From a virus (lineage: Duplodnaviria; Caudoviricetes): DNA of 60,897 nt. The DNA lies in the IMG/VR virus record IMGVR_UViG_3300037756_000054, positions 1 to 60,897 of that record. One strand, 5' to 3'. Under the pieces are notes generated by a model, which made no database searches, was not told the DNA's origin, and was given only the letters and a program-made list of their open reading frames with translations. A program made the translations under genes and the position numbers. Positions 11,081 through 29,459 of the stretch are shown in pieces. Every line of letters starts with the position of its first letter. The stretch's first letter is position 1.

Positions 11081-11160
11081 TGGGCTGGCTGGGAATCGAA
11101 CCCAGCTCCACCGAGCGTTCCCCGGTGTCACATCCAAGGACGGCGCGTCCGCCTCAGCCC
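11081..11160 (-). ncRNA. tRNA-like element 1 (degenerate)
   Basis: GGGCTG/CAGCCC acceptor; GCTGGG-TTCGATT-CCCAGC T-arm; CACCG/CGGTG arm; atypical D region. Confidence 0.65.
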
Positions 11161-11168
11161 GTGTGCCC

Positions 11169-11195
11169 GGTGCCGTACCGGGCGGTAGAGGTCAG
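11169..11195. repeat. intergenic hairpin repeat B
   Basis: GGTGCCGTACCGGGCGGTAGAGGTCAG is identical at 16783-16809; the core also occurs at ~16479-16503. Confidence 0.9.
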
Positions 11196-11494
11196 TCGAG
11201 GTAGCGGGAAATGGATTGCTGCTCTACCAGGACAATGCGGTGCAGGTTCCGCAGCTGCCGCAGGGCGGCCGAGAACGTCTCTTCCATGTCCCGCAAGGAC
11301 TGTGAATTCGGGTCGTAGTCGGTTCCGTGGTTCCTGTCGAGCAGGTGCCCAGGGACGCGCCTAACCATGGCCAGACAGTGCTGTGCTTGCGTCACACCTT
11401 CGGCGATTGCCTTGAGTTTTTCAAGGTTGCACTCTCCGTGCTGTCGCCAAGCTGCATCGTGTTCGGCTGTTTCGGTCTCAAGATCGTTGCTCAT
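11192..11494 (-). CDS. hypothetical early protein
   Basis: GAAGGAG SD after hairpin repeat A. Confidence 0.7.
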   Translation of the reverse strand: MSNDLETETAEHDAAWRQHGECNLEKLKAIAEGVTQAQHCLAMVRRVPGHLLDRNHGTDYDPNSQSLRDMEETFSAALRQLRNLHRIVLVEQQSISRYLD

Positions 11495-11500
11495 GTCGTG

Positions 11501-11539
11501 CTCCTTCGGTTGTGGTGGCCGGAGAGCCGGGCTCCGGCC
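11501..11539. repeat. intergenic hairpin+SD repeat A
   Basis: CTCCTTCGGTTGTGG(TGG)CCGGAGAGCCGGGCTCCGGCC; also at ~17085-17120. Confidence 0.9.
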
Positions 11540-11545
11540 GGTGGG

Positions 11546-11767
11546 TTAGGTGGCGTCCAAGCTGGTCACGAAGTCGTGGATTTCCTGGCCGATCTCAGCG
11601 AGTTCCAGAATCCGTTCCGGCTGTTCGATGTCGATGTCGCCGTCTGCGAAGAGATTCACCTGAACCCGAGTCGGGTCTTCGCTGTCGACAACGAACTGAA
11701 CGTTCCCGATAGTGAGTTTCAGGATCTGTTTGTTGATGCGTTCGATGTGGAATCGGTCGTCGCTCAT
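11546..11767 (-). CDS. hypothetical early protein
   Basis: CGGAGA SD after a hairpin. Confidence 0.7.
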   Translation of the reverse strand: MSDDRFHIERINKQILKLTIGNVQFVVDSEDPTRVQVNLFADGDIDIEQPERILELAEIGQEIHDFVTSLDAT

Positions 11768-11850
11768 GGTGTTCTCCGTTCTGGGTGGCCCGGCGGGGGC
11801 AGCGAGTCTGCGCAGGTTGCGGGTCGCATAGCCCCGCCGGGGGCTTGTGT

Positions 11851-11994
11851 GAGAACCGGGGTCCTGAGCGGGGTCGGGTGCAGGGCGGTTACTACTCCAC
11901 CGGTGCATGTCGCCAGATGCCTCTGGCGGTCCGGCGCCGATCCTGCTTCCATCGGCCTCCCCGGCACCCGGCCCCTATCAGAGCCTCGGTTCCC
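11851..11994 (-). ncRNA. candidate structured RNA (long stem with multibranch head)
   Basis: Nested pairings GGGAACCGAGG/CCCCGGTTCTC and GGGGCCGGGTGCCGGG/CCCTGCACCCGACCCC, plus internal hairpins; no convincing ORF. Confidence 0.55.
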
Positions 11995-12130
11995 TGTGTA
12001 GTTGTTGTTGCTATGTCTCTACGATACACTTAGTGTGAACAATCATCCATACTTTGGGGAGGTGAATTCTATGAATGAACAATCGTCTACCTACACTGAC
12101 CGAACGGTTGACCCAGGTACCCTGACCGAC

Positions 12131-12331
12131 ATGCCCGGCCCACGCACCGACCCCGACATTCCTGACCTCGTCAACCTCACCGACGCGGCCAAGATCCTGA
12201 ACGTCGCCAAATCGCGGGCACACGTCCTCGTTCAGGACGGGAAACTGCCCGGCCAGAAGGTCGGCGGCACGTGGGTGTTCCGGCGGGCCTTGGTCGAGGA
12301 ACTCCGCCCGAAGATCGGGAAGCGCGAATAG
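12131..12331 (+). CDS. HTH_17/excisionase-like DNA-binding protein
   Basis: LVNLTDAAKILNVAKSRAHVLVQDGKLPGQKVGGTWVF; start could be 12071. Confidence 0.8.
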   Translation: MPGPRTDPDIPDLVNLTDAAKILNVAKSRAHVLVQDGKLPGQKVGGTWVFRRALVEELRPKIGKRE

Positions 12332-12333
12332 GC

Positions 12334-13332
12334 TCATGCGGCATGCTCCAACAGCATCGCGAACGCCGCAGCGCCCTGCTGAGGGACAACACCGTTGCCC
12401 AGGGCGTGCAACTGCTGGTTACGCGACAGGCCCGGCACATCCGTGACGTGGCCAGCCGGCAGACCCATCAGGAATTCCACAAACCTGGGGGTGAGTCGCT
12501 GACCGTTCCGGCCGGCATGTGTTGCTGATGGTGCTGGCCTTCCGGTGATGTGTTCCCACCGGGCGATGGCGGCGGCGTATTTCCCCCATCGATCCGCACT
12601 GCCAGCGACGGGAGTGTCAGATCTCCGCTGGATCCGCGCTGGTTCGGGCCACCCTTGGTTCCATCGGTGGCTCTGGGCGTCGGTAGTAGCCGGATGGCTT
12701 CGTTCAGATCGGTCCCCCGAGGGTTCGGATCGCATCCCCGGCCATCCCGCGCCCTGGGTGTCGGTAGAAGAGATACCACTGTCCGCAAGTCCGGACCGCC
12801 CGTTCCATGCAGCCCGACGCCGTTCGTGTCGCTGGTTCGCGGTGTAGGCAACAATGAAGACCCGTTCGCGCTGGTGGGCGGCACCGACGGCGGATGCTCG
12901 TAGAGTCCTCCACGATCCCATGTACCCGAGCGCGGCCAGTCCGTGAACGACACTGGCCATAGCGTTCCCGCCTCCAATAGACAGCAACCTAGGGACGTTC
13001 TCGAACAGGCACAACCGGGGTCGTGTTGCCATGTTGCCAATAGCTCGCGTGATGTCATCGAATAGCCATCTGTCGTCGTGGATACCGGCACCGTGGCCGG
13101 CGGCTGAGATTGGTTGGCACGGGAACCCGGCCGTCAGGATGTCGACCGGTTCGACCTGCGACCAGTCCACGGTTCGGATGTCGCCCAGGTTGGGGACGGT
13201 CGGGTGGTGGTGGGCGAGGATCAGTGAGGCGCCAGGGTCGGGGTCGGCCACCCACGCCAGCTCAGCGGGAACAACGGATTGGACGGCCATGTCGAGCCCT
13301 CCATACCCGGAACACATTGAACCGATCCTCAC
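12334..13332 (-). CDS. C5-cytosine DNA methyltransferase
   Basis: Motif I SMCSGYGG, IV GFPCQ, VI ENV, VIII HQRERVF, X LGNGVVPQQ. Confidence 0.92.
   Translation of the reverse strand: MRIGSMCSGYGGLDMAVQSVVPAELAWVADPDPGASLILAHHHPTVPNLGDIRTVDWSQVEPVDILTAGFPCQPISAAGHGAGIHDDRWLFDDITRAIGNMATRPRLCLFENVPRLLSIGGGNAMASVVHGLAALGYMGSWRTLRASAVGAAHQRERVFIVAYTANQRHERRRAAWNGRSGLADSGISSTDTQGAGWPGMRSEPSGDRSERSHPATTDAQSHRWNQGWPEPARIQRRSDTPVAGSADRWGKYAAAIARWEHITGRPAPSATHAGRNGQRLTPRFVEFLMGLPAGHVTDVPGLSRNQQLHALGNGVVPQQGAAAFAMLLEHAA
12468..13058 (-). CDS. nested alternative-frame ORF with three LLPTP repeats (putative MTase specificity subunit)
   Basis: WPRSG and 3x LLPTPRxxD in a different frame inside the MTase gene. 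Confidence 0.6.
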   Translation of the reverse strand: MTSRELLATWQHDPGCACSRTSLGCCLLEAGTLWPVSFTDWPRSGTWDRGGLYEHPPSVPPTSANGSSLLPTPRTSDTNGVGLHGTGGPDLRTVVSLLPTPRARDGRGCDPNPRGTDLNEAIRLLPTPRATDGTKGGPNQRGSSGDLTLPSLAVRIDGGNTPPPSPGGNTSPEGQHHQQHMPAGTVSDSPPGLWNS

Positions 13333-13826
13333 GGCCGCCCGCTAATTCCCCAGCCACACAACCGGGCGGCGTCAACGATCCGCTGCGGGGTCACGTTGTC
13401 GCGTAGTTTCACCAGCGTGTGTGGTGTGGAGATTCTGACGTACCACCGCAGACCGTCGTGTCCATAACGGATAGTTTCGGCGGTTACTTCTACGATCACG
13501 CTCGGGTGGTTGGTTTCCCATGTGGTCATACCGCGAGCCCGGTAGGTGCGCCGGAATCCCAGGAGCCGTGCCCACCGGATCAGATCCCGGACCGTCACCG
13601 GCTCCGGTTCGGCGTGCCCGAGGTCGCCGTCGCAGCGCATCCCCAAAGCACCGATGTGCGGGCAGCCGCCATCAGTGGCGTGCGTGAAGTGCGTTCCGTC
13701 GGATGGCTCACGCAGTTTCGCTGTGGCGCGATTCATCATCGATTCGGCTATCTGCCGGCCACGCTCGACATCGCCGCGCCGGATCTGGATCGGGTTGGTC
13801 TGCGGTTCGGCCAGTGGGTCACGCAT
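13329..13826 (-). CDS. hypothetical protein
   Basis: AAGGAG SD. Confidence 0.55.
   Translation of the reverse strand: MRDPLAEPQTNPIQIRRGDVERGRQIAESMMNRATAKLREPSDGTHFTHATDGGCPHIGALGMRCDGDLGHAEPEPVTVRDLIRWARLLGFRRTYRARGMTTWETNHPSVIVEVTAETIRYGHDGLRWYVRISTPHTLVKLRDNVTPQRIVDAARLCGWGISGRP
13786..13817. repeat. 32-bp exact direct repeat (copy at 21169-21200)
   Basis: TGGATCGGGTTGGTCTGCGGTTCGGCCAGTGG; encodes PLAEPQTNPI at two gene starts. Confidence 0.9.
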
Positions 13827-14091
13827 CGCGCGTCTCCTTCGTTAGCTCGGCCATCGCCGGGTACAGGCTGGGTATCAATCGGCAAGCGGAGATGACCTCA
13901 GCGCGGATGTCGGCGTCCGAGGGGATCGGGTCATTGAGGTGGGCACCCCGCACGTACCCCATAACAGCGGCTTCACCGACGAGACGTTGTTCGCGTTCGG
14001 TCATCGCGGCCAGGGTCCGGGCCACGTCGTCGGCGCGGTCCTGGTCTCTGGCGGCCAGATAGGCGACCAGATCAGCGGGAATCTCAGTCAT
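13819..14091 (-). CDS. hypothetical protein
   Basis: ATGA overlap. Confidence 0.6.
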   Translation of the reverse strand: MTEIPADLVAYLAARDQDRADDVARTLAAMTEREQRLVGEAAVMGYVRGAHLNDPIPSDADIRAEVISACRLIPSLYPAMAELTKETRDA

Positions 14092-14462
14092 CGGTTTGAC
14101 CGCCGATCGATCGCTTCGGCCCATGCCACAGCCACGGCCGCGACCTGGATCAGCTCGGCGCGGATCTTGACCGGGTCCGCCTCTGCGAGAGCTTCGTAGA
14201 CCTCTTCGAGGAGCACGCCGTCCCAAGCGGTGCACGCCTCGGCAGGGTCGCGGTACTTGACCTCGCAGCCGTCCCCGGCGCGCCGGGCGTTGATCTCTTT
14301 CCAGCGGTCAGCACGGAAGGCGTACTCGTTGCGGACGACGCTGCCGATGTCGTGCGGATCGAGGTCGGGGTGGTTCTGCTCGCCCCACTTCGCGTCCTGG
14401 CGGGCGCGCTCGTCGGCGATCTCGTCGAGAACGGGCCTATTGCGGATCTTCGGGTAGGTCAT
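14088..14462 (-). CDS. MazG-like nucleotide pyrophosphohydrolase
   Basis: ERARQDAKWGEQNH...LLEEVYEA...RAELIQVAAVAVAW. Confidence 0.75.
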   Translation of the reverse strand: MTYPKIRNRPVLDEIADERARQDAKWGEQNHPDLDPHDIGSVVRNEYAFRADRWKEINARRAGDGCEVKYRDPAEACTAWDGVLLEEVYEALAEADPVKIRAELIQVAAVAVAWAEAIDRRSNR

Positions 14463-14755
14463 CGGCCCGCCTCCTCGATGGCGGCGGCGCGGGAGGCGAT
14501 ATCCGTCAACAACGCCACCTCCAGGCTCGGGTCTGCGGCCAGCAGGTGATCCACTTCGGCGCGGCCTGGCAGGATCCCGGATGCGATATCCCGCAGCACC
14601 TCGGCGGCGATGAGCGGCGCGACCTTCCGGACGATCGCTTTCGCCACCTCGATGTCGAACTCGTCCGGAGAGCTGACGTGCGGGTAGTTACCCGCGTCGC
14701 GGGCCTCCATCTCCACATCGATTACCGCCTGCTCGGCAGGAGTCAAATCATTCAT
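14459..14755 (-). CDS. hypothetical protein
   Basis: ATGA overlaps. Confidence 0.55.
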   Translation of the reverse strand: MNDLTPAEQAVIDVEMEARDAGNYPHVSSPDEFDIEVAKAIVRKVAPLIAAEVLRDIASGILPGRAEVDHLLAADPSLEVALLTDIASRAAAIEEAGR

Positions 14756-15222
14756 GGGTTCACCTTCATTGGAGGGTCATCGGTTTTCGGTGGCGAATAC
14801 TTTTCGGCCTCGGTGGCCAGGTACTCGGCAGCAGCAGGCACGGTTTCCGCGAGCCTGGCCAGCGCCTCGAAACGGTCGAGGGCGATGTTCATCCACCCCT
14901 CCGCCCGCTGCCGGTCCCGTTCCCGCGACAGCGCCATCTCGTGCAGCGGCGACGGGTACGACCCGAACGACCGGTCAATGTGTTTGACCGCCCACGCTTC
15001 GGCTTCGATCTGTTCGGGTGTCCCGTTGGAGAACATCCAACCGGCGTCACGGTCGATGTCGTATGACCCGCAATCAGGTCCCCGGCAGTCGCCGTGTGCC
15101 GTCCAGTACTCGGGGTCCGGCAGTGGTACGGAGTAGAACCGGATGCCACAGGTGGCGCACCTAGACACCAGAACAGGGACACCCAGGTGGTTGATTGTCG
15201 CGTACTGCGGAGTGCTGGTCAT
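14752..15222 (-). CDS. hypothetical protein with Zn ribbon
   Basis: CATC...CRGPDC; GGAGG SD. Confidence 0.55.
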   Translation of the reverse strand: MTSTPQYATINHLGVPVLVSRCATCGIRFYSVPLPDPEYWTAHGDCRGPDCGSYDIDRDAGWMFSNGTPEQIEAEAWAVKHIDRSFGSYPSPLHEMALSRERDRQRAEGWMNIALDRFEALARLAETVPAAAEYLATEAEKYSPPKTDDPPMKVNP

Positions 15223-15290
15223 TCGTCGTCCTCCGTGCACGGCTGGTCGGGGAAGCAGTTCGTACCCGGGTCACAGCCGTCCCCGTGGTC
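15223..15290. repeat. 68-bp exact direct repeat (copy at 21448-21515)
   Basis: Identical sequence encoding DHGDGCDPGTNCFPDQPCTEDD. Confidence 0.92.
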
Positions 15291-15316
15291 ACAGACGAGG
15301 ATCGGGACCGTGCTTT

Positions 15317-15748
15317 TCATGACGTGGCCTCCGGCAGCTTGATCGTGATGTCAGCGCGGGACGCGAGGTCGGCGACGAGTTCGGCCATGGTTTCGGCTTC
15401 CTCGTCGGTCATTTCTTCGCATTCCTCGACGTGCTGCACCTCGTAGGCCAGGCTGTAGCAGTCCAGCCGGGCGGCGTTCAGCATCAGCTCGGTGGTGACG
15501 TGGGGTGCGAGTTTCCGCATCGCGTCAGTAGCCGGTGCGTACAGATGTTGCGGCACCAGCACGTCACGCGCGCAGGTGGTGCCGTCGTCAAACTCGACAA
15601 CTACCTGGACCCACCGCCTGGTGTATGCGGTAGCGGGGATGGCCTTGAGTGCCACTGTCGTAACGGTGATGATGGATCCACGCCAGCGGATCTGGTCGCC
15701 GGGTTCAAGGTCACCCCAGCGGGTCACTTTGCGGTCGGTGTCAGGCAT
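15317..15748 (-). CDS. hypothetical protein (SH3-like N-terminus)
   Basis: DLEPGDQI motif. Confidence 0.55.
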   Translation of the reverse strand: MPDTDRKVTRWGDLEPGDQIRWRGSIITVTTVALKAIPATAYTRRWVQVVVEFDDGTTCARDVLVPQHLYAPATDAMRKLAPHVTTELMLNAARLDCYSLAYEVQHVEECEEMTDEEAETMAELVADLASRADITIKLPEATS

Positions 15749-15820
15749 CGGAACCCCCGAAAGCGACCGCGACGACGAATACAACGGCGACAACAACACC
15801 GAGGCAGATCTGTGCGGCGG

Positions 15821-15967
15821 TCATCGTCCAGCCCTTTCCTTGGTGCGCATGAATTCCTCAACCGGCGCGTACCCACGGGGGTCCGCAGCCACCAGCTGTT
15901 CCTGTCGCTCGAGCGCTTCCCAATACCGTTCATCGCGGCGCGCCTTGCTGTTGTTCTTGCGGCTCAT
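15821..15967 (-). CDS. small hypothetical protein
   Basis: AAAGGAG SD directly after tRNA-like element 3. Confidence 0.55.
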   Translation of the reverse strand: MSRKNNSKARRDERYWEALERQEQLVAADPRGYAPVEEFMRTKERAGR

Positions 15968-15991
15968 GGTGAGCTCCTTTCGTTGTTCTAG

Positions 15992-16076
15992 CGCCCTTGC
16001 GAGGTATCGAGCCTCGCCTCCCACCGGGTGTGGTGGACTCCCCGCGACCTATCCGGGTCGCACTCCATGGAGGGCG
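15992..16076 (-). ncRNA. tRNA-like element 3 (degenerate)
   Basis: CGCCCT/AGGGCG acceptor; GCGAGG-CTCGATA-CCTCGC T-like arm; CCACC-ACACCC-GGTGG arm; GCGACC/GGTCGC arm. Confidence 0.55.
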
Positions 16077-16106
16077 TGTGCCCGGGGTGCGGCCCGGGCA
16101 GGATGG

Positions 16107-16376
16107 TCAGGTGGTGCGCCTGTACTTGGTCACGACCGTCTCGAAAGGCTCCACCTCTACGGCTTCAACCTCGCTGTCCCAGGTGTCCTGTTCCTGTTCC
16201 TCGGTCGAACCGACTTTGTAGGCGACGCTCCACAGCTTGTCGTCGTACTTGAATACGGCCTCGTGCACGTCGTACCAGCGGCGTTGGTCGATCAGCTCGG
16301 TGTGGACTACTGAGTCGCCTCCGGCATCGATTTCGAGCTCTTCCAGTTGCTCGCGGGTGAATGTGCGTTTGGTCAT
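16107..16376 (-). CDS. acidic hypothetical early protein
   Basis: AGGAG SD after tRNA-like element 2. Confidence 0.7.
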   Translation of the reverse strand: MTKRTFTREQLEELEIDAGGDSVVHTELIDQRRWYDVHEAVFKYDDKLWSVAYKVGSTEEQEQDTWDSEVEAVEVEPFETVVTKYRRTT

Positions 16377-16403
16377 TTTGTGCTCCTATTCGGTTGTCTC
16401 TTG

Positions 16404-16477
16404 TGGGCTGGCGGGAATCGAACCCGCGTCTCCGGCGTACATTCCGGCCGACTTATTCCAATTGGTCGATCAGCCCA
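16404..16477 (-). ncRNA. tRNA-like element 2 (cloverleaf with 8-nt anticodon loop; possibly pseudo-tRNA-Tyr GTA)
   Basis: 7-bp acceptor TGGGCTG/CAGCCCA; CGAC/GTCG D stem with GG loop; CCGG-AATGTACG-CCGG; GCGGG-TTCGATT-CCCGC. Confidence 0.75.
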
Positions 16478-16507
16478 TGTGTGCCCGGTGCCGTACCGGG
16501 CGGGTGG

Positions 16508-16762
16508 CTACTTGAACGGCTCGATCTTGGCTTGCTCGTTCTCCACAATGCGGCGGATATCCCGCAAGTGACGATGAGCCTCTTCCACGTGGTGCCGCAT
16601 GTCAGCGACCGCTTCGGGGGACACTTCCCCGTCAACAGCGATCATGTCGGCGGTGAGCCATCCCAGGGCGGGTGGCATATCCATCAGGTTGAGTTCGGCG
16701 CCAAGCACGGCAGTGGACAGGGTGCTCAGGTGTTTCAAACTGGCTTCTGCGATGTCGTACAT
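16508..16762 (-). CDS. hypothetical early protein
   Basis: AAGGAG SD. Confidence 0.7.
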   Translation of the reverse strand: MYDIAEASLKHLSTLSTAVLGAELNLMDMPPALGWLTADMIAVDGEVSPEAVADMRHHVEEAHRHLRDIRRIVENEQAKIEPFK

Positions 16763-16805
16763 TTCGTTCTCCTTGGATTGGTGGTGCCGTACCGGGCGGT
16801 AGAGG

Positions 16806-17078
16806 TCAGGTTTGCTTGTTGCGGTTCGCGGCCAAAGCGGCGTCGTAGAGACGGTCGTACTCGTTCACGTGCTCCGCGTTCGCGGACTTCCGCATTGATG
16901 CGGCGTGAGCACTAGCAGCCTGCTTATCCAGCGCGGTCAACGCGGGGTGGTCGAAATATCTGGCCGGGTAATGCTCCACGGCATACTCGGCGCCTTCCCA
17001 GTCGCGTTTGTGCTGGTGCAGGATGGCCGCGCCTTTATCCAGGTCGGACATTTCGCTCCACGTTGGCAAAGCGGTCAT
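16806..17078 (-). CDS. hypothetical early protein
   Basis: GAAGGAG SD after repeat A. Confidence 0.7.
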   Translation of the reverse strand: MTALPTWSEMSDLDKGAAILHQHKRDWEGAEYAVEHYPARYFDHPALTALDKQAASAHAASMRKSANAEHVNEYDRLYDAALAANRNKQT

Positions 17079-17130
17079 TTCGTTCTCCTTCGGTTGTGGC
17101 CGGAGAGCCGGGCTCCGGCCAGGTGGGTGG

Positions 17131-17325
17131 TTATTCCGGGCCTCTCGGGTCCCATTCGCTGCCGTTGAGGTCATGCGCCTCCACGTAATCGACGAGTTCG
17201 TCCAGCGCCCGCTGTTCCTCTTCCACTGTCTCGACGATGACGGCGTCATACGCCACAGCTGCGTCGGCGTAGGCGCTGCGGAGCCGACGCAGCTGGGTCA
17301 CATTCGGTTTGTCGCTGGCGGTCAT
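17131..17325 (-). CDS. hypothetical early protein
   Basis: CGGAGA SD after a hairpin. Confidence 0.7.
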   Translation of the reverse strand: MTASDKPNVTQLRRLRSAYADAAVAYDAVIVETVEEEQRALDELVDYVEAHDLNGSEWDPRGPE

Positions 17326-17387
17326 TTCCGTCTCCGTTCTGGGTGGCCCGGCTCCTCCGTGCGGAGCCGGGCGGGTTGGTTACTTAC

Positions 17388-17651
17388 TCAGCCGTCGTAT
17401 GCCTCGCCGTCGCCGCCATACAGCGGCTCACGCTCGTCGTCGTCCTCTGTGGCGGGCATGTTCAGGGCGGTGATCGCGGTACGTACCCGCTCCCGGCACG
17501 CCTCCACCTCGCCGGGCGTCGCAGCCAAGTTGGATTCCTCGACACCCAGGTAGCCCAGAGCCATCACCAATTCGATGCGGACCTCTTTGGGGGCGTGCTC
17601 CTCGGCGTACTGGACGACCCTCCACATGTCCTCGCGGTTGAGGTCATTCAT
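17388..17651 (-). CDS. acidic hypothetical early protein
   Basis: Hairpin plus AAAGG upstream. Confidence 0.65.
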   Translation of the reverse strand: MNDLNREDMWRVVQYAEEHAPKEVRIELVMALGYLGVEESNLAATPGEVEACRERVRTAITALNMPATEDDDEREPLYGGDGEAYDG

Positions 17652-17700: not shown

Positions 17701-17907
17701 TTAGGTGTAGATCTCGACGCGCTTGTTGCCAGGTGTGGCGATGGGGAAGTCATAGCTGTCCAGGTATTTGATGTGAACCCATCCGTGTCGGTCGGGAGTG
17801 GATACGGATTCGACAGTGGATTCTCCGTCGATGGCGCCGTTTGCGTGGCGGGAAATGATCGTGTTGCCGGTCGTCAGCTGGTCGGCGGTGGTTTTCTTGG
17901 TGTTCAT
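17701..17907 (-). CDS. hypothetical early protein
   Basis: First gene after the 17954-17982 promoter. Confidence 0.6.
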   Translation of the reverse strand: MNTKKTTADQLTTGNTIISRHANGAIDGESTVESVSTPDRHGWVHIKYLDSYDFPIATPGNKRVEIYT

Positions 17908-17953
17908 GGGGGACCCAATTCCGGTAGTCAGTTTCGATTCTCTGTTACGATAC

Positions 17954-17982: not shown

Positions 17983-18013
17983 CCCCGTATCGATACGCCG
18001 GTACAATCCGGCC

Positions 18014-18726: not shown

Positions 18727-18731
18727 CCCAG

Positions 18732-18806
18732 TACCGCTCCCGGGATTCGAACCCGGACTGAACTGACTTTTAAGGTCAGCGCTTCTACCTGTTGAGCGAC
18801 AGCGGT
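18732..18806 (-). tRNA. tRNA-Leu(UAA), short variable arm, no encoded CCA
   Basis: Cloverleaf: CTGAC-CTTAAAA-GTCAG anticodon arm; CCGGG-TTCGAAT-CCCGG; A73; one G:G mismatch in the acceptor. Confidence 0.85.
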
Positions 18807-21842: not shown

Positions 21843-23153
21843 TCACTGGTCCTCGATTCCGATATCGACGATCCGACTGAACTGCAGTTGCGCGGCAGCG
21901 GTGACGGTCTCGATGGGGCCGTTACGGTTTTTGGCCACGATCAGATCGATCTCGCCGGCCCGCATGTGCTCAGGTTCGTGATAGTCGGGGCGGTGCAGCA
22001 GGATCACGACGTCACTGTCCTGCTCGATCGACCCGCTCTCACGAAGGTCGGCCAGTTGAGGCCTGCGGTCGGAGCGTTGCTCGGCCATCCGGTTCAACTG
22101 GGCTGCAGCCACCACGGGCACCTGCAGCTCCCGGGCGAGGATTTTCAGGCCACGGGAGATCGCGCCGACTTCCAGGGTCCGGTTGTCGGTGTTGCCCGCT
22201 GACCGCATCAGCTGCAGGTAGTCCACAACGATCAGGCCCAGCCCGATGTCCTGCTGGAGCTTGCGGGCGGTGGCACGGATCTGCGCCAGGTCGATGGACG
22301 CGGTGTCGTCAATGTGGATGTACACGCCGCGCAGTTTCTCGGCGGCCTCCCGCAGACGCGGGATCTCATAGTCCCGCAACGGGCCGTCGATGATCCGCTT
22401 CAAACTGACCCCAGCTTCAGCTGCCAACATCCGGCACTGAACTTCCCTGGACGACATCTCCAGGTTGAACAGCAAACTGGGTTCCAGTTGCCGGATCGAC
22501 GTGGCCCGGATGAAATCGTTGACCAGGACCGACTTGCCCATCCCCGGCCGCCCGGCGATCACGATCAGTTGCCCGGGTTTCAGGCCACCGATCACGTCAT
22601 CCAGAGACCCGACCCCGGTGGACAATCCCCGGTCGGGGCCATCGGGGGCGAACACTCCCTCCAGGGTCGAATCCAGAATCTCGGTAAACGAGACCATCGA
22701 GGACGCTTTGCGGGTTGTCGCGCCGTGGACTATCGACTGCACGTGATCGACAACCTCGGGCAGCTCGGTGCCAACGTTCCGTGCGGCTTGGATCGCTTTG
22801 GTGCAAACCTCGACAATGTTGCGGCGGGTCGACAACTCGGTGACCCGCTCGGCATACCAGCCGGCACTTGCGGCCACCGGCACCGAGGCGATCAGAGTGT
22901 GCAGGTATGGGGCGCCGATTTTGGGCAGGTCCCCGTCGGCGGCCAGCCTGTAGGCGATCGTCTGCGGGTCGACTGGTTCGCCCCGCCCAGCCTGGTCCCG
23001 GATCGCGGCGAACACGGTGGCGTGCTTGGGTGAGTAGAAATCCTGTGCCTGCAACACCTCCAGGCATTGCGTCGCCGCCGCCGGGGACAGGATCATGGCG
23101 CCCAGGACGATCTGTTCGATCTGCTCATCAGCCAGGGGGACGTATTCGTTCAC
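21843..23153 (-). CDS. dnaB: replicative DNA helicase
   Basis: AGRPGMGKS Walker A, VVDYLQL, AQLNR, DLRESGSIEQDSD, KNRNG. Confidence 0.96.
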   Translation of the reverse strand: MNEYVPLADEQIEQIVLGAMILSPAAATQCLEVLQAQDFYSPKHATVFAAIRDQAGRGEPVDPQTIAYRLAADGDLPKIGAPYLHTLIASVPVAASAGWYAERVTELSTRRNIVEVCTKAIQAARNVGTELPEVVDHVQSIVHGATTRKASSMVSFTEILDSTLEGVFAPDGPDRGLSTGVGSLDDVIGGLKPGQLIVIAGRPGMGKSVLVNDFIRATSIRQLEPSLLFNLEMSSREVQCRMLAAEAGVSLKRIIDGPLRDYEIPRLREAAEKLRGVYIHIDDTASIDLAQIRATARKLQQDIGLGLIVVDYLQLMRSAGNTDNRTLEVGAISRGLKILARELQVPVVAAAQLNRMAEQRSDRRPQLADLRESGSIEQDSDVVILLHRPDYHEPEHMRAGEIDLIVAKNRNGPIETVTAAAQLQFSRIVDIGIEDQ

Positions 23154-24016
23154 GGGGTGGCTCCTTCAAATTTGCATAGTCCGCACGTGGTCCGGCGTTT
23201 CCGGTGTTCGCATTTCTCGGCAGCCGGGATCAGATCCGGGGCATTCGAGGCGGGGGAGTCTGCTCGTCCTGTGGTGGTGCGTTGCGCGGCCAGCCGCAGC
23301 TGGTCGTACTTGGTGCGCAGCGTCGGCATCGACATGACGTTGCCGCGCCAGAAGTCGCTGGCCTGGCACCAGTCGATGGCTTTGAGGATCTGCTCCTCGG
23401 TCCGACCATCGGCGTCGATCATCAGCCGGGCGGCATCCCGCCACCGTTTCCCGATCACTGGGCGTTTGGAACCGTTGGCTGCGATCTTGTCTGCCAAATG
23501 TGTACAGACGCTTTCAACGTCGTCGCGAATCTCATTCGCGGACGAAGGTTCTTCTATAGGCTGGGTAGGGCTGGGTAGGGCTGGGGTAGAGCGAACAGAT
23601 TGCGAACTTCGCGCGAACTTCGCGGTAGGTTCGTCCGAAGTTCGCGTTTCGTTCGCGCGAACAGATTGCGAACGTTTTGCCTTGATCTCGCGGACCTTTT
23701 TCATCCGGTCGCGAGCCTCGGCGCGCTTCTCCAGCACCTCCGAACGTGACCGCTGGATCTGGTCCCATTCGTGGAACGACCAGCCCTTTTCTCCGTCCTG
23801 CTCGTCCTCCACCCACAGGCCGGCCCGCACCAGCGCTGCAGCGCTTTCACTGAAATTGGGGTCCATTTTGGCGGCGATGTAGTCCGGCACCCATCCATCT
23901 GAGAGGTGCTGTGCCGCCCATGAGCCCGCCAGAACCCACAAACCGAGGGCTGCAGCACCGGCGCGCGCGGCCTTCTTGTGGCTGTGGAAGCTGTCATCGA
24001 CCATGAACCACGGCAT
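23150..24016 (-). CDS. phage replication initiator
   Basis: MPWFMVDD...GLW...SDG N-terminus; FWRGNVMSMPTLRTKYDQL C-terminus; next to dnaB. Confidence 0.8.
   Translation of the reverse strand: MPWFMVDDSFHSHKKAARAGAAALGLWVLAGSWAAQHLSDGWVPDYIAAKMDPNFSESAAALVRAGLWVEDEQDGEKGWSFHEWDQIQRSRSEVLEKRAEARDRMKKVREIKAKRSQSVRANETRTSDEPTAKFARSSQSVRSTPALPSPTQPIEEPSSANEIRDDVESVCTHLADKIAANGSKRPVIGKRWRDAARLMIDADGRTEEQILKAIDWCQASDFWRGNVMSMPTLRTKYDQLRLAAQRTTTGRADSPASNAPDLIPAAEKCEHRKRRTTCGLCKFEGATP
23591..23673. repeat. iteron-like repeats (candidate origin)
   Basis: GCGAACAGATTGCGAAC x2 and GAACTTCGCG direct/inverted copies inside the initiator gene. Confidence 0.65.
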
Positions 24017-24468
24017 CAGTCGATCTCCCCGGACAGGTCGGTGATCTTTACGGTGACCACACACTCCGGGCCATAGACGTTCTTCGGCAAGACCTTGCCG
24101 ATGGTCACGTGCGGGCCGTCCAGGTACTGCGGGGTGTCGTCGGCGATCAGCCCATACCCGGGGGCATACACGAGCTCTCGGCGTCCGGAACGGTTCCGCC
24201 AGTACTTGATCTCCGGACCGAGTGCGTCCACGATCGGCTTAGCCGTGTCGTGGTAATTAGCCTCGTCACGGTGCCGATTGGTGGAGAACCTCAACGCCAC
24301 GTCGATTCGGACCCTGGCCAAGCCCTTCGGCAACCTGGCCGTCCGTGCGCATTGGAATGTCGTGCCCCGCCAGGCTTTGACGATCTGCGCCCGCCGGAAC
24401 CGGCTAGGCCCAGAGTTTTTCGACAACGGAACGGTCGGCGCCGGGATGTGCAGCACGTAGTCAGGCAC
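24016..24468 (-). CDS. RusA-like Holliday junction resolvase
   Basis: RDEANY...KPIVDAL...GLIADD. Confidence 0.75.
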   Translation of the reverse strand: MPDYVLHIPAPTVPLSKNSGPSRFRRAQIVKAWRGTTFQCARTARLPKGLARVRIDVALRFSTNRHRDEANYHDTAKPIVDALGPEIKYWRNRSGRRELVYAPGYGLIADDTPQYLDGPHVTIGKVLPKNVYGPECVVTVKITDLSGEID

Positions 24469-25231: not shown

Positions 25232-25587
25232 GCGCCAACCCCCGTCCCGGCGACCGAGTACATCGCGCGGACGCTGGCGCCCACCGATTGCAGTGCGCGG
25301 AGTTCGTTCTCCAGCGCTCGCGCGGTGCGGTCGGCGTATCGGTAGGACGCATCGGCAACATCACGCTTGGTGCGCTCGTCGGCCGTGGCCACCTCGGCGG
25401 CGTACCGCTTTTCGTGTGCGGGGCCGGAGTGCTTCAGGTATGCGTTGGCGTAGGCCAGCGCGTGAGCGTGATCGGCGGCCAGGAACGCCCGGTACCGCTT
25501 ATCGCACACCTTCACGCCGTCGCCGATCCGGTTGGACACCTCACGGATTCCGGACTCAACCTCAACCGGGTTCATCGGGTCATTCAT
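25228..25587 (-). CDS. hypothetical coiled-coil protein of the recombination module
   Basis: Helical; between ERF and HNH. Confidence 0.7.
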   Translation of the reverse strand: MNDPMNPVEVESGIREVSNRIGDGVKVCDKRYRAFLAADHAHALAYANAYLKHSGPAHEKRYAAEVATADERTKRDVADASYRYADRTARALENELRALQSVGASVRAMYSVAGTGVGA

Positions 25588-26281
25588 CGCGGTCTCCAGC
25601 CAGTTCCGGTTCCGGTGTAGCCGTCGCGATCAGCGCCCGACGCCGAGCGGTCTGTTTGGGGAGCTTGGCGGCGGCCTCACCCAAGCGGGTCACCATGGCG
25701 CCCAACGGCTCCTCGGCCCCGTCTTCGTTGACCACCAAGTCGTCCAGCAGGTCGTTCTGCTTGGCCAGGTTGTACGTGTTCAGCAGCCGTTCACGGTTCC
25801 GCTTGTGCCCGATCGCTTTCTTCGCCAGCTCCGGTGCGGTCCACGGCTCGGACCGGCGGTAGTCCTGCGCGGCCGGGTCCGGTTCTCCGGTGGGGATGCG
25901 CAGCAGCTGCAACAAAGCGGTCCGGTACGCCACACTCATGGCCTTGGGGGTCGCCTTGTCGCCGGAGTCCATCGCTTCGGCGGCGACACTGGCGAAGATT
26001 GAATCACCGCGCGGCCCGTAGACCCGATACCCGACTTGGACTTGCGCGATCCGGGTGGGAGTCCTTTTCGCTCCGATCTCCGTGGACTCGTAGGCGACCG
26101 CCTGCAACTCAGGGATCGGACCGATCACGCCGTGGTTTTTGAGCGCCACATCGGCGGCGATCGTGATCTCATCGACCCCGCGATACTTGTACCCCTGCTG
26201 GTGCGAAGTGTTCTTTCCAACAGGTTCAACGTCGGCGATGACGCTGGTCATCAACTCGAAAATGGTGGGTTGATCGTTCAC
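25580..26281 (-). CDS. ERF-family ssDNA annealing protein
   Basis: GYKYRGVD...GPRGD...AEAMDSGDKATPKAMSVAYRTALLQ. Confidence 0.85.
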   Translation of the reverse strand: MNDQPTIFELMTSVIADVEPVGKNTSHQQGYKYRGVDEITIAADVALKNHGVIGPIPELQAVAYESTEIGAKRTPTRIAQVQVGYRVYGPRGDSIFASVAAEAMDSGDKATPKAMSVAYRTALLQLLRIPTGEPDPAAQDYRRSEPWTAPELAKKAIGHKRNRERLLNTYNLAKQNDLLDDLVVNEDGAEEPLGAMVTRLGEAAAKLPKQTARRRALIATATPEPELAGDRDE

Positions 26282-27063
26282 AGCAGAACCTCCGTTGGGG
26301 CAGGCTCGGCAGCGCCCAGCCATGGCTTCATGGCGTCGCCCATGCGACGCGACAACCAGATGAGGTGCTGGTACACCTTCCACACGTCCTCGCTGGTATC
26401 CAGTGGACGAACGTCATACCCATCGGCCCGGACATGCACCACATACGAGGCATTGACACCCAGGGCAGACAACGACTGTTCGTTGCCATCGCCGTCCAAA
26501 TAGATCTCGCACCACCGGTAGGCGGCACATTGCAAGGCCGTTTCCGGGTAGACACCCTTGGACGTTTTCAGGTCCATCAGGGCGCGCTCACCGTTCGGCA
26601 GATCCGCGACCAGATCCAAGGTCCCGGCCAGCGTCCATTTCCGGGACGCCACTACCGCCTCCACCAAGACCGGTTTGGGCTGCCACTCGTCCAGGAACTT
26701 GACATACGACTCGACGTAACCGGACAGTTCTTCAGGTACGGCTACTTCTTCGCCCTTGACCAGACGCTCAGCCAGCGCATGCACCTCGGTTCCCCGGTTG
26801 CCAGCGGCGTCGCGCTGTTCCCAGGGCTTTCCCTTCAGTTCGTTGACAACCTTGTCGCGGTTCCAGTCGGCCATGGCGGCGATCTCTTCGGGATGGTCGG
26901 CGACCCATTCAGCGACGACCTTCGGCGCCCAGTTGATCAACGCCGGTTTCGGGACCGTGTTCTTCAGGACAGTGGTTACGCCATCGGCTTTGCGGCCATC
27001 GATCTGGTACCAGTGTGTCGGTTTCCCGTACCGCGTTTTGGAATCAATCCGTTTGATAGCCAC
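26278..27063 (-). CDS. PD-(D/E)XK exonuclease (Cas4/RecE-like)
   Basis: GVTTVL...RGTEVH...E...AGTLD...DLKT...LQCAAY. Confidence 0.85.
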   Translation of the reverse strand: MAIKRIDSKTRYGKPTHWYQIDGRKADGVTTVLKNTVPKPALINWAPKVVAEWVADHPEEIAAMADWNRDKVVNELKGKPWEQRDAAGNRGTEVHALAERLVKGEEVAVPEELSGYVESYVKFLDEWQPKPVLVEAVVASRKWTLAGTLDLVADLPNGERALMDLKTSKGVYPETALQCAAYRWCEIYLDGDGNEQSLSALGVNASYVVHVRADGYDVRPLDTSEDVWKVYQHLIWLSRRMGDAMKPWLGAAEPAPTEVLL

Positions 27064-27236
27064 TACGCCGCCTCCACCGTGTACACACCGCTGTTGCAAA
27101 CCACGGTCGGGCCGGCCATCGCCCGCTCGGCGGCGATCTCGGCGCGGATCTGCTCCACCCAGGACGCCATCCGGTCCTCGAAAACGGCCATCATGTCCAC
27201 CTCGGGAGGCTGTGTCACCGGCATCTGTTTCTTCAT
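27063..27236 (-). CDS. hypothetical protein
   Basis: GAAGGA SD. Confidence 0.5.
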   Translation of the reverse strand: MKKQMPVTQPPEVDMMAVFEDRMASWVEQIRAEIAAERAMAGPTVVCNSGVYTVEAA

Positions 27237-27292
27237 TTCGTGTCCTTCGTGGTAGGTGGGGCGGTCCCGCCCAGGGCCGCCCCGGAATGTGG

Positions 27293-27514
27293 TCATTGAG
27301 TGAGCCGCTTCGCGAGGTCTTCCAATGAGGCGCGCTCACTGTCGGACAGGGGCGATCCGTACCGTTTCGCGTAGTCGTACAGGTCGTATCCCAGGAGGTC
27401 CCGGTCGTATTCGGCTTGAGCGAGTTGGGCGTTGAGGACCCGGATACGGCGGGCCTGCACCAGGACCATTGCTGCCAGCAGGAACACGGCCAGGATCAAC
27501 ACCGGGACAGTCAT
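27293..27514 (-). CDS. membrane-anchored coiled-coil protein
   Basis: N-terminal TM; GGAGG SD. Confidence 0.6.
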   Translation of the reverse strand: MTVPVLILAVFLLAAMVLVQARRIRVLNAQLAQAEYDRDLLGYDLYDYAKRYGSPLSDSERASLEDLAKRLTQ

Positions 27515-27763
27515 GACTGGTCCTCCCGATCTGCCTTGAGGGCCGTTGAGAAGCAGGCGATCGAGAGCACGGCGTAGAACACCAGGGCGAGAGTGCAACC
27601 GACACTCAAAACGATCTCTAGTGGAGTCATGACGGGAACCCCTCCCAGAAACCGGCGTCCGGGCATTCCTCATCCGGGATATACGTCCAAGCGACACCCA
27701 GGACGGCGCCAGCCAGACAAAGCGCCACGGCACCCATGACCATCAGGTAGACAGCGAAGGCGG

Positions 27764-28063
27764 TCATGATTCGACCTCCACCATGTTCGGGCCGGGCGGG
27801 TCAGCATCAGGATCGATCCCGGCGTCCGTGATCGCCTCCAGCTGCTGCGGGGCGTCGATCCCGTCCAGCAGCTCAGGCGCCCACTCCAAGGGCCGCATGT
27901 GCAGATCGATCGCGGCGAACAGGACGCCCCGGCAGGGTGCGCACATGTCGATGATTCGCGCCGTCCCGCCAGCCAAAAGGTCCAGACAGTAGGTGTCCGT
28001 TACGTCCAGTGTGCACACTGCGCAGTCGAGCGGCGGGGCTGTAGCGTCATCCATATTGATCAT
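27764..28063 (-). CDS. hypothetical Zn-binding protein
   Basis: CAVC...CAPC. Confidence 0.55.
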   Translation of the reverse strand: MINMDDATAPPLDCAVCTLDVTDTYCLDLLAGGTARIIDMCAPCRGVLFAAIDLHMRPLEWAPELLDGIDAPQQLEAITDAGIDPDADPPGPNMVEVES

Positions 28064-28341
28064 GACCGCACCACGTCCGGCGCTTTGTAGCCGACCAGCA
28101 GGTCCGCGACTTCCGTCGGTTCCGGCCACCGCTTGGTTTTGGTGGCGGACGGGCTGGTAACCCGCCAGTACCCGGCATCGGGTCCCCTCCCGACAACCAC
28201 ACGCCAACCGGTCGGGTGCCAGTGGGTAGCGAAATTCCCGAGGTGCTCGCCGTGGACCCAATCGCCACCCAACGCCAGCCGGGTCGCGTCCGCCAGAGCG
28301 GCGACAGACCTATCAGTGTCAACTTGAACGATGGTGGTCAT
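28060..28341 (-). CDS. hypothetical protein
   Basis: ATGA overlaps. Confidence 0.55.
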   Translation of the reverse strand: MTTIVQVDTDRSVAALADATRLALGGDWVHGEHLGNFATHWHPTGWRVVVGRGPDAGYWRVTSPSATKTKRWPEPTEVADLLVGYKAPDVVRS

Positions 28342-28450
28342 GATCGCCCCCAATTGGTGATCAGTAGGACGGCGCTGATGGTCAGACCAATCAGGAGCAT
28401 GGCCGCGCCGACAATGAATTGCGGATTGACGGTGGTGTTTTCGATGAGGG

Positions 28451-28759
28451 TCACGAGATTTCCCCCGTCTTGGTGTTCACTCGCGGGCCGGAATATGGGA
28501 CCGGTGCCGCTGGCAGGGAACCCGCCGGGGCGGTCAGGTCGTGCGAGGCCAGCAGAACGTGAGACTCGTCGGGGATGATGGTCCCGGTGACCGCCATGGC
28601 GGTACCGTCCACAACCACATCCACAGTGAACGCCGACAGTGCCAGCCAGGCCCGCACCGCAGCCCGCGCAATGTTTTCGTTCTCTCCGTGGAACTCGATC
28701 CGGTCGCGGCGTTGCGTCTGGATCGTCCAGGTGTTGATGGTGCCGTCGGGGACATTCAC
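28451..28759 (-). CDS. hypothetical protein
   Basis: GTGA overlaps. Confidence 0.55.
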   Translation of the reverse strand: MNVPDGTINTWTIQTQRRDRIEFHGENENIARAAVRAWLALSAFTVDVVVDGTAMAVTGTIIPDESHVLLASHDLTAPAGSLPAAPVPYSGPRVNTKTGEIS

Positions 28760-28995
28760 GACGCACCGCCCTTGTAGACGGTGTATGTGACCGGGTAGCG
28801 GGTCGGGAGCTCCCGCAGCAGACCTACGGCCGAATCAACGTCGATGGCGCCGGAGGCCAGTTCCAGCGCCCACACTCGGGTAGCGATCGTGCGGGTCCGC
28901 AGCAGGTCACGGTCGGCCTGCGGGTTGCCGTCGGCTATTGGCACATCCAGTGCAAGCGCCACAGCGGCAGCCAGCTTCTGCGCTTGCGTTGTCAT
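28756..28995 (-). CDS. hypothetical protein
   Basis: ATGA overlap. Confidence 0.55.
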   Translation of the reverse strand: MTTQAQKLAAAVALALDVPIADGNPQADRDLLRTRTIATRVWALELASGAIDVDSAVGLLRELPTRYPVTYTVYKGGAS

Positions 28996-29315
28996 GACGC
29001 CACCGCCGGGATCCACTCGAAAGCGCGGTCGATCGCGGTCAGCTGGCGGGACTCGTCCAAGGGCGCACCCAGGATCCGCAGTACCGCCACAACCTCGTCC
29101 GGGCCGACCCAGCGGAGGCCAGCGTGGCCACCGTTCGGCATCCAAATGTCGACCTGCGGGCGAACATCGCTGGCAGTCACCTGCCAGCCATCGGATTCCC
29201 ACTTGTGGGCATCCTGGTCGTACCGCCAGCCATACAGGGCATCGATCAAACCTGTGATGACGCCGACGGCCTTATCGTGTAGCTCGAACCTGTTCGGGTT
29301 CGGGTAAGTTTTCAT
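28992..29315 (-). CDS. hypothetical protein
   Basis: AAAGGA SD after a hairpin. Confidence 0.65.
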   Translation of the reverse strand: MKTYPNPNRFELHDKAVGVITGLIDALYGWRYDQDAHKWESDGWQVTASDVRPQVDIWMPNGGHAGLRWVGPDEVVAVLRILGAPLDESRQLTAIDRAFEWIPAVAS

Positions 29316-29386
29316 TGCTCGGCACTTCCTTTCTAGATCTGCCTTGCGTGGCCGTCAGGCGTTCGCGCGCCTGGCGGCCCTTGTCG

Positions 29387-29459
29387 TTCCTCAGGGAGGT
29401 TTCGGGCCTCCGTCTCCCGCCGGGTGTGGCGGGCGCTCTACCTGTTGAGCTACTGGGGA
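29387..29459 (-). ncRNA. tRNA-like element 4 (canonical D arm, non-canonical anticodon and T loops)
   Basis: TCCCCAG/CTGAGGA; TA-GCTC-AACAGGTA-GAGC; CCCGCC-ACACCC-GGCGGG; GGAGG-CCCGAAA-CCTCC. Confidence 0.7.

Follow-up and report, generated by a model that had tools for sequence, protein, structure and literature searches.

Four tRNA-like elements between early genes of a viral contig as candidate RNA processing and boundary marks

What is a tRNA-like shape doing between two phage genes if it cannot decode? The question is raised by a viral contig (IMG/VR record IMGVR_UViG_3300037756_000054) that we analysed over its whole length of 60,897 bp (61.7% G+C) and refer to as the window. Nearly all of its genes are located on the minus strand, and many overlap by 4-8 nucleotides (nt), as judged from a rough gene call based on G+C at third codon positions (GC3). 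Four tRNA-like elements, El1 to El4 (Table 1), lie on the same strand, sense to the genes and between them, as a first-pass annotation of this DNA had proposed. We interpret them tentatively, with a probability of about 0.45, as processing and boundary marks of the RNase P/Z type in the polycistronic early mRNA. Bacterial RNase P, RNase Z, and the CCA-adding enzyme are all able to act on acceptor/T-arm minihelices. We favor this interpretation because the part conserved in the window, together with a family of minihelices in other phages, is what these enzymes recognize.

The conserved part is the top half of the tRNA. All four elements keep an acceptor plus T-arm stack of 12 bp, perfect in El1 and El2 and with one mismatch each in El3 and El4, in agreement with the approximately 12 bp first claimed. 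Their anticodon loops measure 8, 6, 6, and 8 nt, within the non-canonical range of 6-9 nt noted earlier, and a 5-bp stem with a 7-nt loop is possible in no register. El4 has an A just before the anticodon and lacks U33. The minimum free energy fold of all four elements is a four-way junction. The statement that they are not decoding tRNAs is supported by the impossible 7-nt loop in all four, by the missing D-loop GG of El1, and by C54 in El3 and El4. In addition, the recoding site that we examined is an ordinary -1 arrangement, formed by a tail assembly chaperone pair (49415-50221, minus strand) upstream of the tape measure gene and shifting from frame 1 to frame 0.

With default settings, ARAGORN makes a single call in the window, an ordinary tRNA-Leu(taa), which serves as an internal comparison. 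At 97% thresholds, c[11080,11160] (El1) and c[16403,16477] (El2) are added, and at 92% c[29386,29459] (El4), with nothing else down to that level; El3 is not called even at 87%. The expectation had been a pseudo call or none. In 25 dinucleotide-preserving shuffles of the genome, ARAGORN returned a mean of 0.12 calls (maximum 1) at 97% and 1.32 calls (maximum 5) at 92%. Since the shuffles give a mean of only 0.12 at 97%, the calls of El1 and El2 are beyond chance, whereas that of El4 alone is not.

El4 scores 44.4 bits against the Rfam tRNA model RF00005 (gathering score 29) in a scan of 351 nt. The speed filters of the whole-window and 21-kb Rfam scans missed it, and a short stretch was needed. 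It is the one element of the four that reaches the Rfam tRNA gathering score, and El1 and El3 have no Rfam tRNA match at E<=10. For El2, the listed Rfam match, with lower-scoring matches of the clan left out, is to the two ends, or tRNA-like domain, of tmRNA (RF00023; 30.6 and 20.7 bits, gathering score 47). El3 is identified by its four-way-junction fold and its likeness to El4. A strict script that requires an uninterrupted 12-bp acceptor/T stack and a T-loop with a closing G-C pair finds El1, El2, the tRNA-Leu, and one likely chance site (0.65 hits in shuffles). With a relaxed T-loop and one mismatch, El3, El4, and the T-arm of a YrlA-like RNA are added among 10 hits (shuffles 4.15).

Exact copies of CCGGGCACAC occur three times in the window, each directly 5' of El1, El2, or El3, which confirms the hairpin previously reported before three of the elements. 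Copies with one mismatch are not above chance (9 found, 11.5 expected), and therefore the signal of this motif is its placement and not its count. Each exact copy supplies the 3' arm and the tail of a GC hairpin, and this hairpin lies after the stop codon of the upstream gene. The hairpins of El1 and El2 are identical over 25 nt, and their motif copies lie inside an identical repeat of 25-27 nt. A truncated third copy of this hairpin is joined directly to a Shine-Dalgarno (SD) sequence and a start codon, with no tRNA-like element. On the downstream side, El2 ends 26 nt before the ATG at 16376 and El3 ends 25 nt before the ATG at 15967, the start codons being preceded by AGGAG and AAAGGAG, respectively; two elements had indeed been described as preceding an SD. 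El2 and El3 flank one gene of 89 amino acids (aa). The first base of El4 immediately follows the TAA of the upstream gene, and a 13-bp hairpin follows the element. No promoter-like or U-tailed terminator-like site was found at the elements on the gene strand.

In the mechanism that we propose, the elements are mimics of the tRNA top half that are built into polycistronic early transcripts and would be transcribed along with the genes. They keep the 12-bp coaxial acceptor/T stack and the T-loop, which RNase P, RNase Z, and the CCA-adding enzyme measure, and would have lost the 7-nt anticodon loop needed for decoding. RNase P would cut at the 5' end of each element. At El1 to El3, the upstream mRNA would then end in a stable GC hairpin with a tail of 4-5 nt, which would be too short to give 3' exonucleases a hold. 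A cut after the discriminator base, made by RNase Z or a similar enzyme, would free the downstream mRNA with a short SD leader. The operon would thereby be split at four junctions into separately stable messages, a small tRNA-like RNA would be released at each, and the repeated junction sequences might also be recombination points for the gain and loss of cassettes.

El1 and El2 are paralogues that have the hairpin, the almost identical acceptor strands, and the T-loop in common and differ throughout the middle. Two double changes in their T stem, U-A to C-G and C-G to G-C, keep the pairing. The paralogues El3 and El4 differ at few positions over ~38 nt covering the anticodon-like arm and the T-arm, have the loop ACACCC in common, and show one compensatory change each in the T stem and the anticodon-like stem. 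Within each pair, the loops and the acceptor strands are unchanged. On thin evidence from these two pairs only, the compensatory changes would argue against free decay.

Separately, a site at 18170-18190 (minus strand) is nearly identical over 18-19 nt, with an insertion or deletion of one base, to the anticodon-like arm of El2 (16437-16456, minus strand). It sits in the plus-strand gene 18014-18253, so that the mRNA of this gene would be complementary to El2 RNA. The near-identity could be due to chance, a recombination scar, or an antisense target.

A parallel family of smaller elements was spotted while phages that carry Ro60 were being inspected. Gordonia phage VanLee (NC_073474.1, 45739-84560, our locus L039) contains 16 unannotated acceptor/T-arm minihelices of ~41-50 nt with a 12-bp stack. 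They are located at L039 16402-16442 and 26432-35714, and all 16 are on the minus strand, which is the strand of the flanking genes. One small-gene array holds 15 of them, 14 of these in consecutive gaps between genes, and the remaining one is located between a different pair of genes. In the array, gaps of ~80-185 nt, most near 100 nt, separate nearly all genes, and a minihelix occupies most of the gaps. Each minihelix begins with a 5' acceptor strand, usually GCCC(C/T)G, which is followed by a linker, the T stem and loop, the 3' strands, a discriminator base, and CG (the latter in 16 of 16). The linkers are 10-20 nt long in 15 cases and 40 nt in one, and GG is present in all of them; the T-loops are TTCGAYT, TTCAACT, or TTCAAGT, and the discriminator is A in 13 copies and G in 3. 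A small hairpin often follows, and then a conserved leader with an SD.

The VanLee stack is split as 4+8, 5+7, 6+6, or 7+5 bp, and positions 3-8 each show 2 to 4 pair types. The pairs were counted by script, and since perfect pairing had been the scanner's criterion for selecting the copies, the pairing percentage is circular and only the diversity of pair types is informative. As a non-circular check, the plain T-loop motif was counted in VanLee, giving 0 forward and 16 reverse matches, with 0 and 0 for the reversed control. Between 62 and 81 kb, 14 of 15 motif sites have an uninterrupted 12-bp stack, and the 15th, judged by eye, has 12 bp interrupted by a bulge of one base. The VanLee minihelices belong to no Rfam family; the best match is mascRNA (RF01684), with 26.8 bits against 42.5.

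Minihelices are also present in Mycobacterium phage HINdeR and in three IMG/VR contigs, G001 to G003 (Table 1), where they cluster in small-gene arrays near one genome end. VanLee can be cultivated on Gordonia rubripertincta and HINdeR on Mycobacterium smegmatis mc2 155. One HINdeR minihelix lies between gp83 and gp82, and a form with a 31-nt linker lies upstream of gp84. In HINdeR, G001, and G002, where readable, the element is found ~5-40 nt after a stop codon and ~35-55 nt before the next start. The elements of G001 and G002 begin ~10-40 nt past the stop of an open reading frame (ORF) on the same strand, and in G002 they end ~45 nt before the next ORF. By similarity only, a likeness to the minihelices was seen in Gordonia phages Cafasso, Aleemily, ObLaDi, Morgana, and MakoManhole, in Streptomyces phage Dagobah, and in Mycobacterium phage SWU2. 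A script scan of the last 10 kb of D29 returned no element with a 12-bp stack, whereas HINdeR has one in the corresponding leader. For cluster A phages, part of one report describes abundant stable small non-coding RNAs from the right end and one intergenic region, to which it assigns no function (PMC5712189).

The earlier proposal that the elements punctuate the mRNA gains support, as far as placement is concerned, from the minihelices found after stops and before starts in VanLee (16), HINdeR, and the three IMG/VR contigs; its other half, cleavage of the transcript, is a prediction. The window elements have the 12-bp stack, the T-loop, the gene strand, and the stop-to-start position in common with this family, and the forms with 31-64-nt linkers in G002 and HINdeR bridge the minihelices and the full-size elements. 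Because the window elements have linkers of 41-52 nt with full arms, and an A-CG tail in El1 and El4 only, we file them as a full-size variant of the minihelix design and not as proven members of the family.

A conserved start-region leader, ...CCACAACCGAAGGAGAACGAAATG, occurs in five copies on the minus strand of the window (11487-11517, 16755-16785, 17071-17101, 17318-17348, and 21673-21703), with a second repeated hairpin ahead of two of them (11512-11539 and 17093-17120). A similar leader (CCCAAC..GAAAGGAG..ATG) follows the minihelices of VanLee and HINdeR.

A wider proposal, which we consider possible but rather doubtful, is that actinophages and phages of metagenome contigs share a class of tRNA top-half mimics that has not been described, ranging from 41-nt minihelices to cloverleaves with a dead loop, one after the stop of each small early gene. 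Host tRNA-maturation enzymes would cut the operon into stable messages and release many small tRNA-like RNAs, and the units would double as joints for cassette swapping, with the window representing the full-size form. If this is true, phages set mRNA boundaries by using host tRNA-maturation enzymes, a principle known from mitochondria and a few eukaryotic long non-coding RNAs but undescribed for operons of phages or bacteria. The regular gaps of ~80-185 nt between small early genes in phages such as VanLee would thereby be explained, and RNA features that pipelines overlook or cover with spurious reading frames would be flagged. Furthermore, the proposal would provide a handle on the expression and exchange of early-gene cassettes, which are often counter-defense genes. 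No description of tRNA-like units between phage genes was found in Rfam or in the main texts of the literature searched, and the first-pass annotation likewise knew of none.

Several known systems are related in design. In animal mitochondrial transcripts, tRNAs punctuate the polycistronic RNA, and the units between genes are the cut marks; these are working tRNAs, whereas El1 to El4 cannot decode. In MALAT1 and NEAT1, a unit excised by RNase P and RNase Z (mascRNA or menRNA) creates the structure-protected mature 3' end of the upstream RNA. MascRNA, the best sub-threshold Rfam match of the VanLee minihelices, gives 15.4 bits on El1, but it is vertebrate and nuclear, all scores are below threshold, and no homology is claimed. 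Both ends of the tmRNA model align with El2 (GGGCUGA...UCGA...T-arm...CAGCCCA), and tmRNA and the minihelices both combine a reduced D region with an intact acceptor/T stack. In contrast to tmRNA, El2 has no mRNA-like domain, only 35 nt lying between its tRNA-like ends; its acceptor is all Watson-Crick with no G3:U70 pair, and its scores are below gathering.

Plant mitochondrial t-elements define mRNA ends, with cleavage attributed to RNase P and RNase Z in the part of the report used here (PMC1920247). According to this text, they resemble El1 to El4 in being non-canonical tRNA-like cloverleaves with a conserved T-arm within mRNA precursors; their ends are mRNA 5' or 3' ends, and the released unit can be stable and can gain a non-encoded C or CCA. 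The sequence traits of t-elements, namely a tRNA-like fold, a conserved T-arm, the sense strand, and a position between genes, are all found in El1 to El4. The t-elements are organellar and have experimentally mapped ends, whereas El1 to El4 are viral and known from sequence alone, and unlike for the phage elements, the same text describes neither an upstream GC hairpin module nor a minihelix form. YrlA (RF02553) is another tRNA mimic with T and D arms that is found in Ro60 phages; as portrayed in the cited part of PMC4201824, it is circularly permuted, binds Ro60 through a terminal stem, and is encoded next to the Ro60 gene, none of which applies to El1 to El4.

The exchange of cassettes has a parallel in the PeSL cassettes of T4-type phages, in which, according to sections of PMC2839356 and PMC4122927, repeated motifs flank small early genes and mark the boundaries of insertions and deletions. 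In those sections the PeSL motif is a promoter with a stem-loop, whereas the window elements are tRNA-shaped and no promoter-like site was found at them. Two observations bear on a resemblance to these cassettes, one breakpoint at the motif and one truncated copy. The breakpoint is seen in a 26.3-kb contig from sequencing run X3, a mosaic relative with pieces 77-94% identical scattered between 11.8 and 29.6 kb, which covers the El4 region at ~80% identity. This contig joins 16075 to 16479 and so lacks El2, the 89-aa gene, and one hairpin, and the joint falls in a repeated 10-nt motif. Because the joint falls at the motif, the same units appear to mark cassette breakpoints as PeSL motifs do in the sections cited. 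Together with the truncated hairpin copy, it indicates that the junction sequences are sites of cassette gain and loss.

Searches for relatives gave little beyond this contig. In the phage collection, a DNA search with 10500-17500 returned only short matches in the methylase gene, the matches of El2-El3 were confined to 33 nt at the tmRNA 3' ends of cluster M phages, and El1 had none. Locus searches based on DnaB in viral and genome contigs gave distant relatives only, the El3/El4 core pattern had 0 matches in the same contigs, and no relatives of the 100-aa upstream protein were found. At 10 loci of replication-initiator relatives in metagenome contigs, ARAGORN made 0 calls even at 92%. A pattern of hairpin plus GGGCTGA had 15 matches in viral contigs, of which 0 were followed by a T-arm, and these were taken as chance; the sole 95%-threshold call at the loci of 89-aa homologues (L032:869-940) lies ~2 kb from the gene and has no T-arm.

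A number of observations weigh against the interpretation of the elements as processing marks. They occupy only 4 of the many gene junctions of the window, where the majority of genes overlap by 4-8 nt. Neither of the tRNA detectors, ARAGORN and Rfam, recognizes El3, T-loop position 54 is C in El3 and El4, without U54, and the fold z-scores (-1.72, -2.35, -1.39, and -1.93 for El1 to El4) are weak individually. The covariation comes from two paralogue pairs only and no close relative with homologous elements was found, which is why we call this evidence thin. At seven viral-contig loci with homologues of the 89-aa protein, 0 tRNA-like calls adjoin the gene, and in the one locus read the gene abuts its neighbors with no element. 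Among the listed differences of the X3 contig is one El3 variant (16044) that would break a pair of the D-like stem. The window was found, whole or in part, in 3 DNA sequencing runs and in 0 RNA runs. Finally, what links the window elements to the minihelices is design and position and not demonstrated homology.

The window also encodes a Ro60 orthologue, and a YrlA-like RNA directly upstream of its gene is likely to be the cognate Ro60 partner. The longest ORF call for Ro60 (661-685 aa, 36781-38766, minus strand) runs through this RNA, which an automatic annotation would probably overlook while assigning Ro60 a spurious N-terminal extension. El1 to El4 sit 7-27 kb from Ro60. The YrlA model reaches 15.5 bits, against a gathering score of 69, on El4 with its upstream flank, matches only a 17-nt T-arm piece of El2, and does not match El1 or El3. 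A TROVE protein occurs in one of the five minihelix-bearing records (VanLee), three of the five being rated 100% complete. In the Ro60-positive phages Neville, GiJojo, and BRock, ordinary tRNA arrays adjoin Ro60, minihelix arrays are absent, and ARAGORN at 95% makes 1, 0, and 0 odd-loop calls, respectively. Among 38 window proteins compared with Pfam and PHROGs, no RNA-processing enzyme other than Ro60 was found. Part of PMC4201824 reports Y RNAs next to Ro60, some in mycobacteriophages, and the cleavage of Mycobacterium smegmatis YrlA by RNase P with the addition of CCA.

In two of these Ro60 phages, GiJojo (17025-17101; L173 826-902) and BRock (97144-97220), we observe an RNA of 77 nt that has a G3:U70 pair and is similar to the tRNA-like domain of tmRNA. 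Both phages conserve it, its acceptor and T stems differing by compensatory changes, and in GiJojo it lies under the hypothetical coding sequence annotated as gp44 and is followed by an 8+4 tRNA-like element at 17267-17344.

Instead of the cut sites, the free small RNAs could be what matters, excised as decoys or sponges for host factors that recognize the acceptor end or the elbow. Examples of such targets are MenT/AbiEii-type nucleotidyltransferase toxins, enzymes that modify the 3' ends of tRNAs. We consider this unlikely, though worth keeping in mind. Of the decoys for tRNA-targeting toxins raised in the first-pass annotation, those for anticodon-targeting toxins fit poorly, the conserved part being the acceptor/T-arm half and not the anticodon loop; the same conservation suits decoys of the acceptor end, as do the many VanLee copies per genome, which would give a high dose, and the small early-gene arrays, which would be the usual home of counter-defense genes. 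A decoy, however, does not need strict stop-to-SD placement, the window has only four copies, and neither such a toxin nor a target was identified in this analysis. There is also a small chance that the primary role lies in the DNA, the hairpin/tRNA-like junctions being PeSL-like recombination boundaries that shuffle cassettes and the tRNA shape being inherited baggage. The X3 contig without El2, its gene, and hairpin, with the joint in a 10-nt repeat, is as expected under this explanation, and so are the truncated hairpin joined straight to a start region and the identical flanks of 25-27 nt at El1, El2, and 16783-16809. Yet recombination needs sequence identity and not a 12-bp stack, while the stems covary with pairing kept, every copy is on the gene strand, and the motif has no promoter. 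Such a role would be compatible with processing marks and does not exclude them.

Ordinary phage tRNA genes decaying into functionless pseudogenes are quite an unlikely source of the elements. Except for one additional base in the loop, El4 comes close to a normal tRNA, El1 and El3 have a degenerate appearance, the phage keeps a single canonical tRNA, and homologues of the 89-aa gene in other contigs have no such neighbors, all as decay would have it. Decay would not, however, preserve pairing through compensatory changes in both paralogue pairs, keep the 12-bp stack in four of four elements, or leave a common flanking hairpin and a consistent stop/SD placement; four dead genes are unlikely in a genome this compact, with overlaps of 4-8 nt, and other phages have a minihelix family under clear structural selection. 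That the elements are working non-canonical tRNAs, such as +1 frameshift (quadruplet) decoders, we regard as highly improbable. Known frameshift suppressors have 8-nt loops, as have El1 and El4, and El4 is above the Rfam tRNA threshold; but the loops of El2 and El3 have 6 nt, El4 has no U33 and El1 no D-loop GG, and the -1 shift of the tail chaperone, the sole recoding site examined, needs no such tRNA. The remaining explanation, also raised in the first-pass annotation, is now disfavored and very unlikely in our view: the elements would be substrates or extra Y-like partners of the phage Ro60, tethering it to proteins or marking RNA for Ro60/PNPase decay. The phage does encode Ro60, VanLee has Ro60 together with minihelices, El4 with its upstream flank gives the weak YrlA match of 15.5 bits, and bacteria often have more than one Y RNA, Y RNAs being tRNA mimics in the cited part of PMC4201824. 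Nevertheless, a YrlA-like RNA (44.5 bits) already adjoins Ro60, and El1 to El4 have a normal, unpermuted topology without the long 5'/3' terminal stem that binds Ro60. The occurrence of TROVE in one of five minihelix records and the ordinary tRNA arrays of Neville, GiJojo, and BRock, which have no such intergenic elements, also speak against it.

The coordinates of the elements, of their flanking hairpins, and of the other features are given in Table 1. From its gene set, and from the lack of close relatives in our searches, the window looks like a temperate actinophage without a close sequenced relative. Two sediment-metagenome runs are among those that contain it, and the contigs of runs X1 and X2 show no listed difference at the elements; these runs are possibly its own source.

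Table 1. Positions of the tRNA-like elements, flanking hairpins, and other features (window coordinates, except for the minihelices of other records)
Feature	Coordinates	Strand	Description
El1	11081..11160	-	6+6 bp acceptor/T stack; canonical T-loop TTCGATT; A-CG tail; long variable arm; 3-bp D stem without D-loop GG; 8-nt anticodon loop
El2	16404..16477	-	7+5 bp stack; canonical T-loop; D loop with GG; anticodon loop 6 nt, or 8 nt with 4-bp stem
El3	15992..16076	-	Cloverleaf-like; 6+6 bp stack with one mismatch; T-loop CTCGATA; 7-bp D-like arm; 6-nt loop ACACCC
El4	29387..29459	-	Near-canonical tRNA shape; 7+5 bp stack with one C.A mismatch; A-CG tail; canonical D arm; T-loop CCCGAAA; 8-nt anticodon loop (or 6 bp + ACACCC)
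Hairpin A1	11161..11183	-	GCCCGGU/ACCGGGC, 5-nt loop, tail ACAC; directly 5' of El1; follows TGA of gene 11192-11494
Hairpin A2	16478..16501	-	Identical to A1, tail ACACA; follows TAG of gene 16508-16762
Hairpin A3	16077..16100	-	8-bp stem, 6-nt loop, stem + tail end ...CCGGGCACAC; follows TGA of gene 16107-16376
Truncated third hairpin A, left half + 5' flank	16783..16809	-	27 nt identical to El1 flank
tRNA-Leu(taa)	18731..18806	-	Ordinary; sole canonical tRNA of the window; ARAGORN default call
Ro60 orthologue	36781..38370	-	TROVE + VWA
YrlA-like Y RNA	38412..38515	-	Directly upstream of Ro60; YrlA model 44.5 bits, gathering score 69
dCTP deaminase	3917-4519		
C5 methylase	12334-13332		
DnaB	21843-23153		
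Replication initiator	23150-24064		
ERF	25580-26383		
Serine integrase	31420-32877	+	
Major capsid protein	54030-55529		59% identical to Che9c, Brujita, and Gordonia phage proteins
HINdeR minihelices	1516-1556 and 515-576		Mycobacterium phage, cluster A; locus L184
G001 minihelices	630-2601		4 minihelices; IMG/VR contig, 100% complete
G002 minihelices	33465-38048		4 minihelices + two forms with 34- and 64-nt linkers; IMG/VR contig, 100% complete
G003 minihelices	9-2347		3 minihelices; IMG/VR contig, 100% complete

A two-gene cassette on the plus strand (18014-18726) lies between the tRNA-Leu and minus-strand genes; the protein of the second gene matches GIY-YIG weakly, at 21.2 bits where the cut-off is 22.6, and the region at 17907-18014 is a divergent intergenic region. 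The early region also contains a perfect direct repeat of 68 nt (15223-15290 and 21448-21515) and a repeat of 41 nt with 93% identity (13786-13826 and 21169-21209). Both are located inside or at the starts of early genes, suggesting duplicated gene segments in this part of the window.

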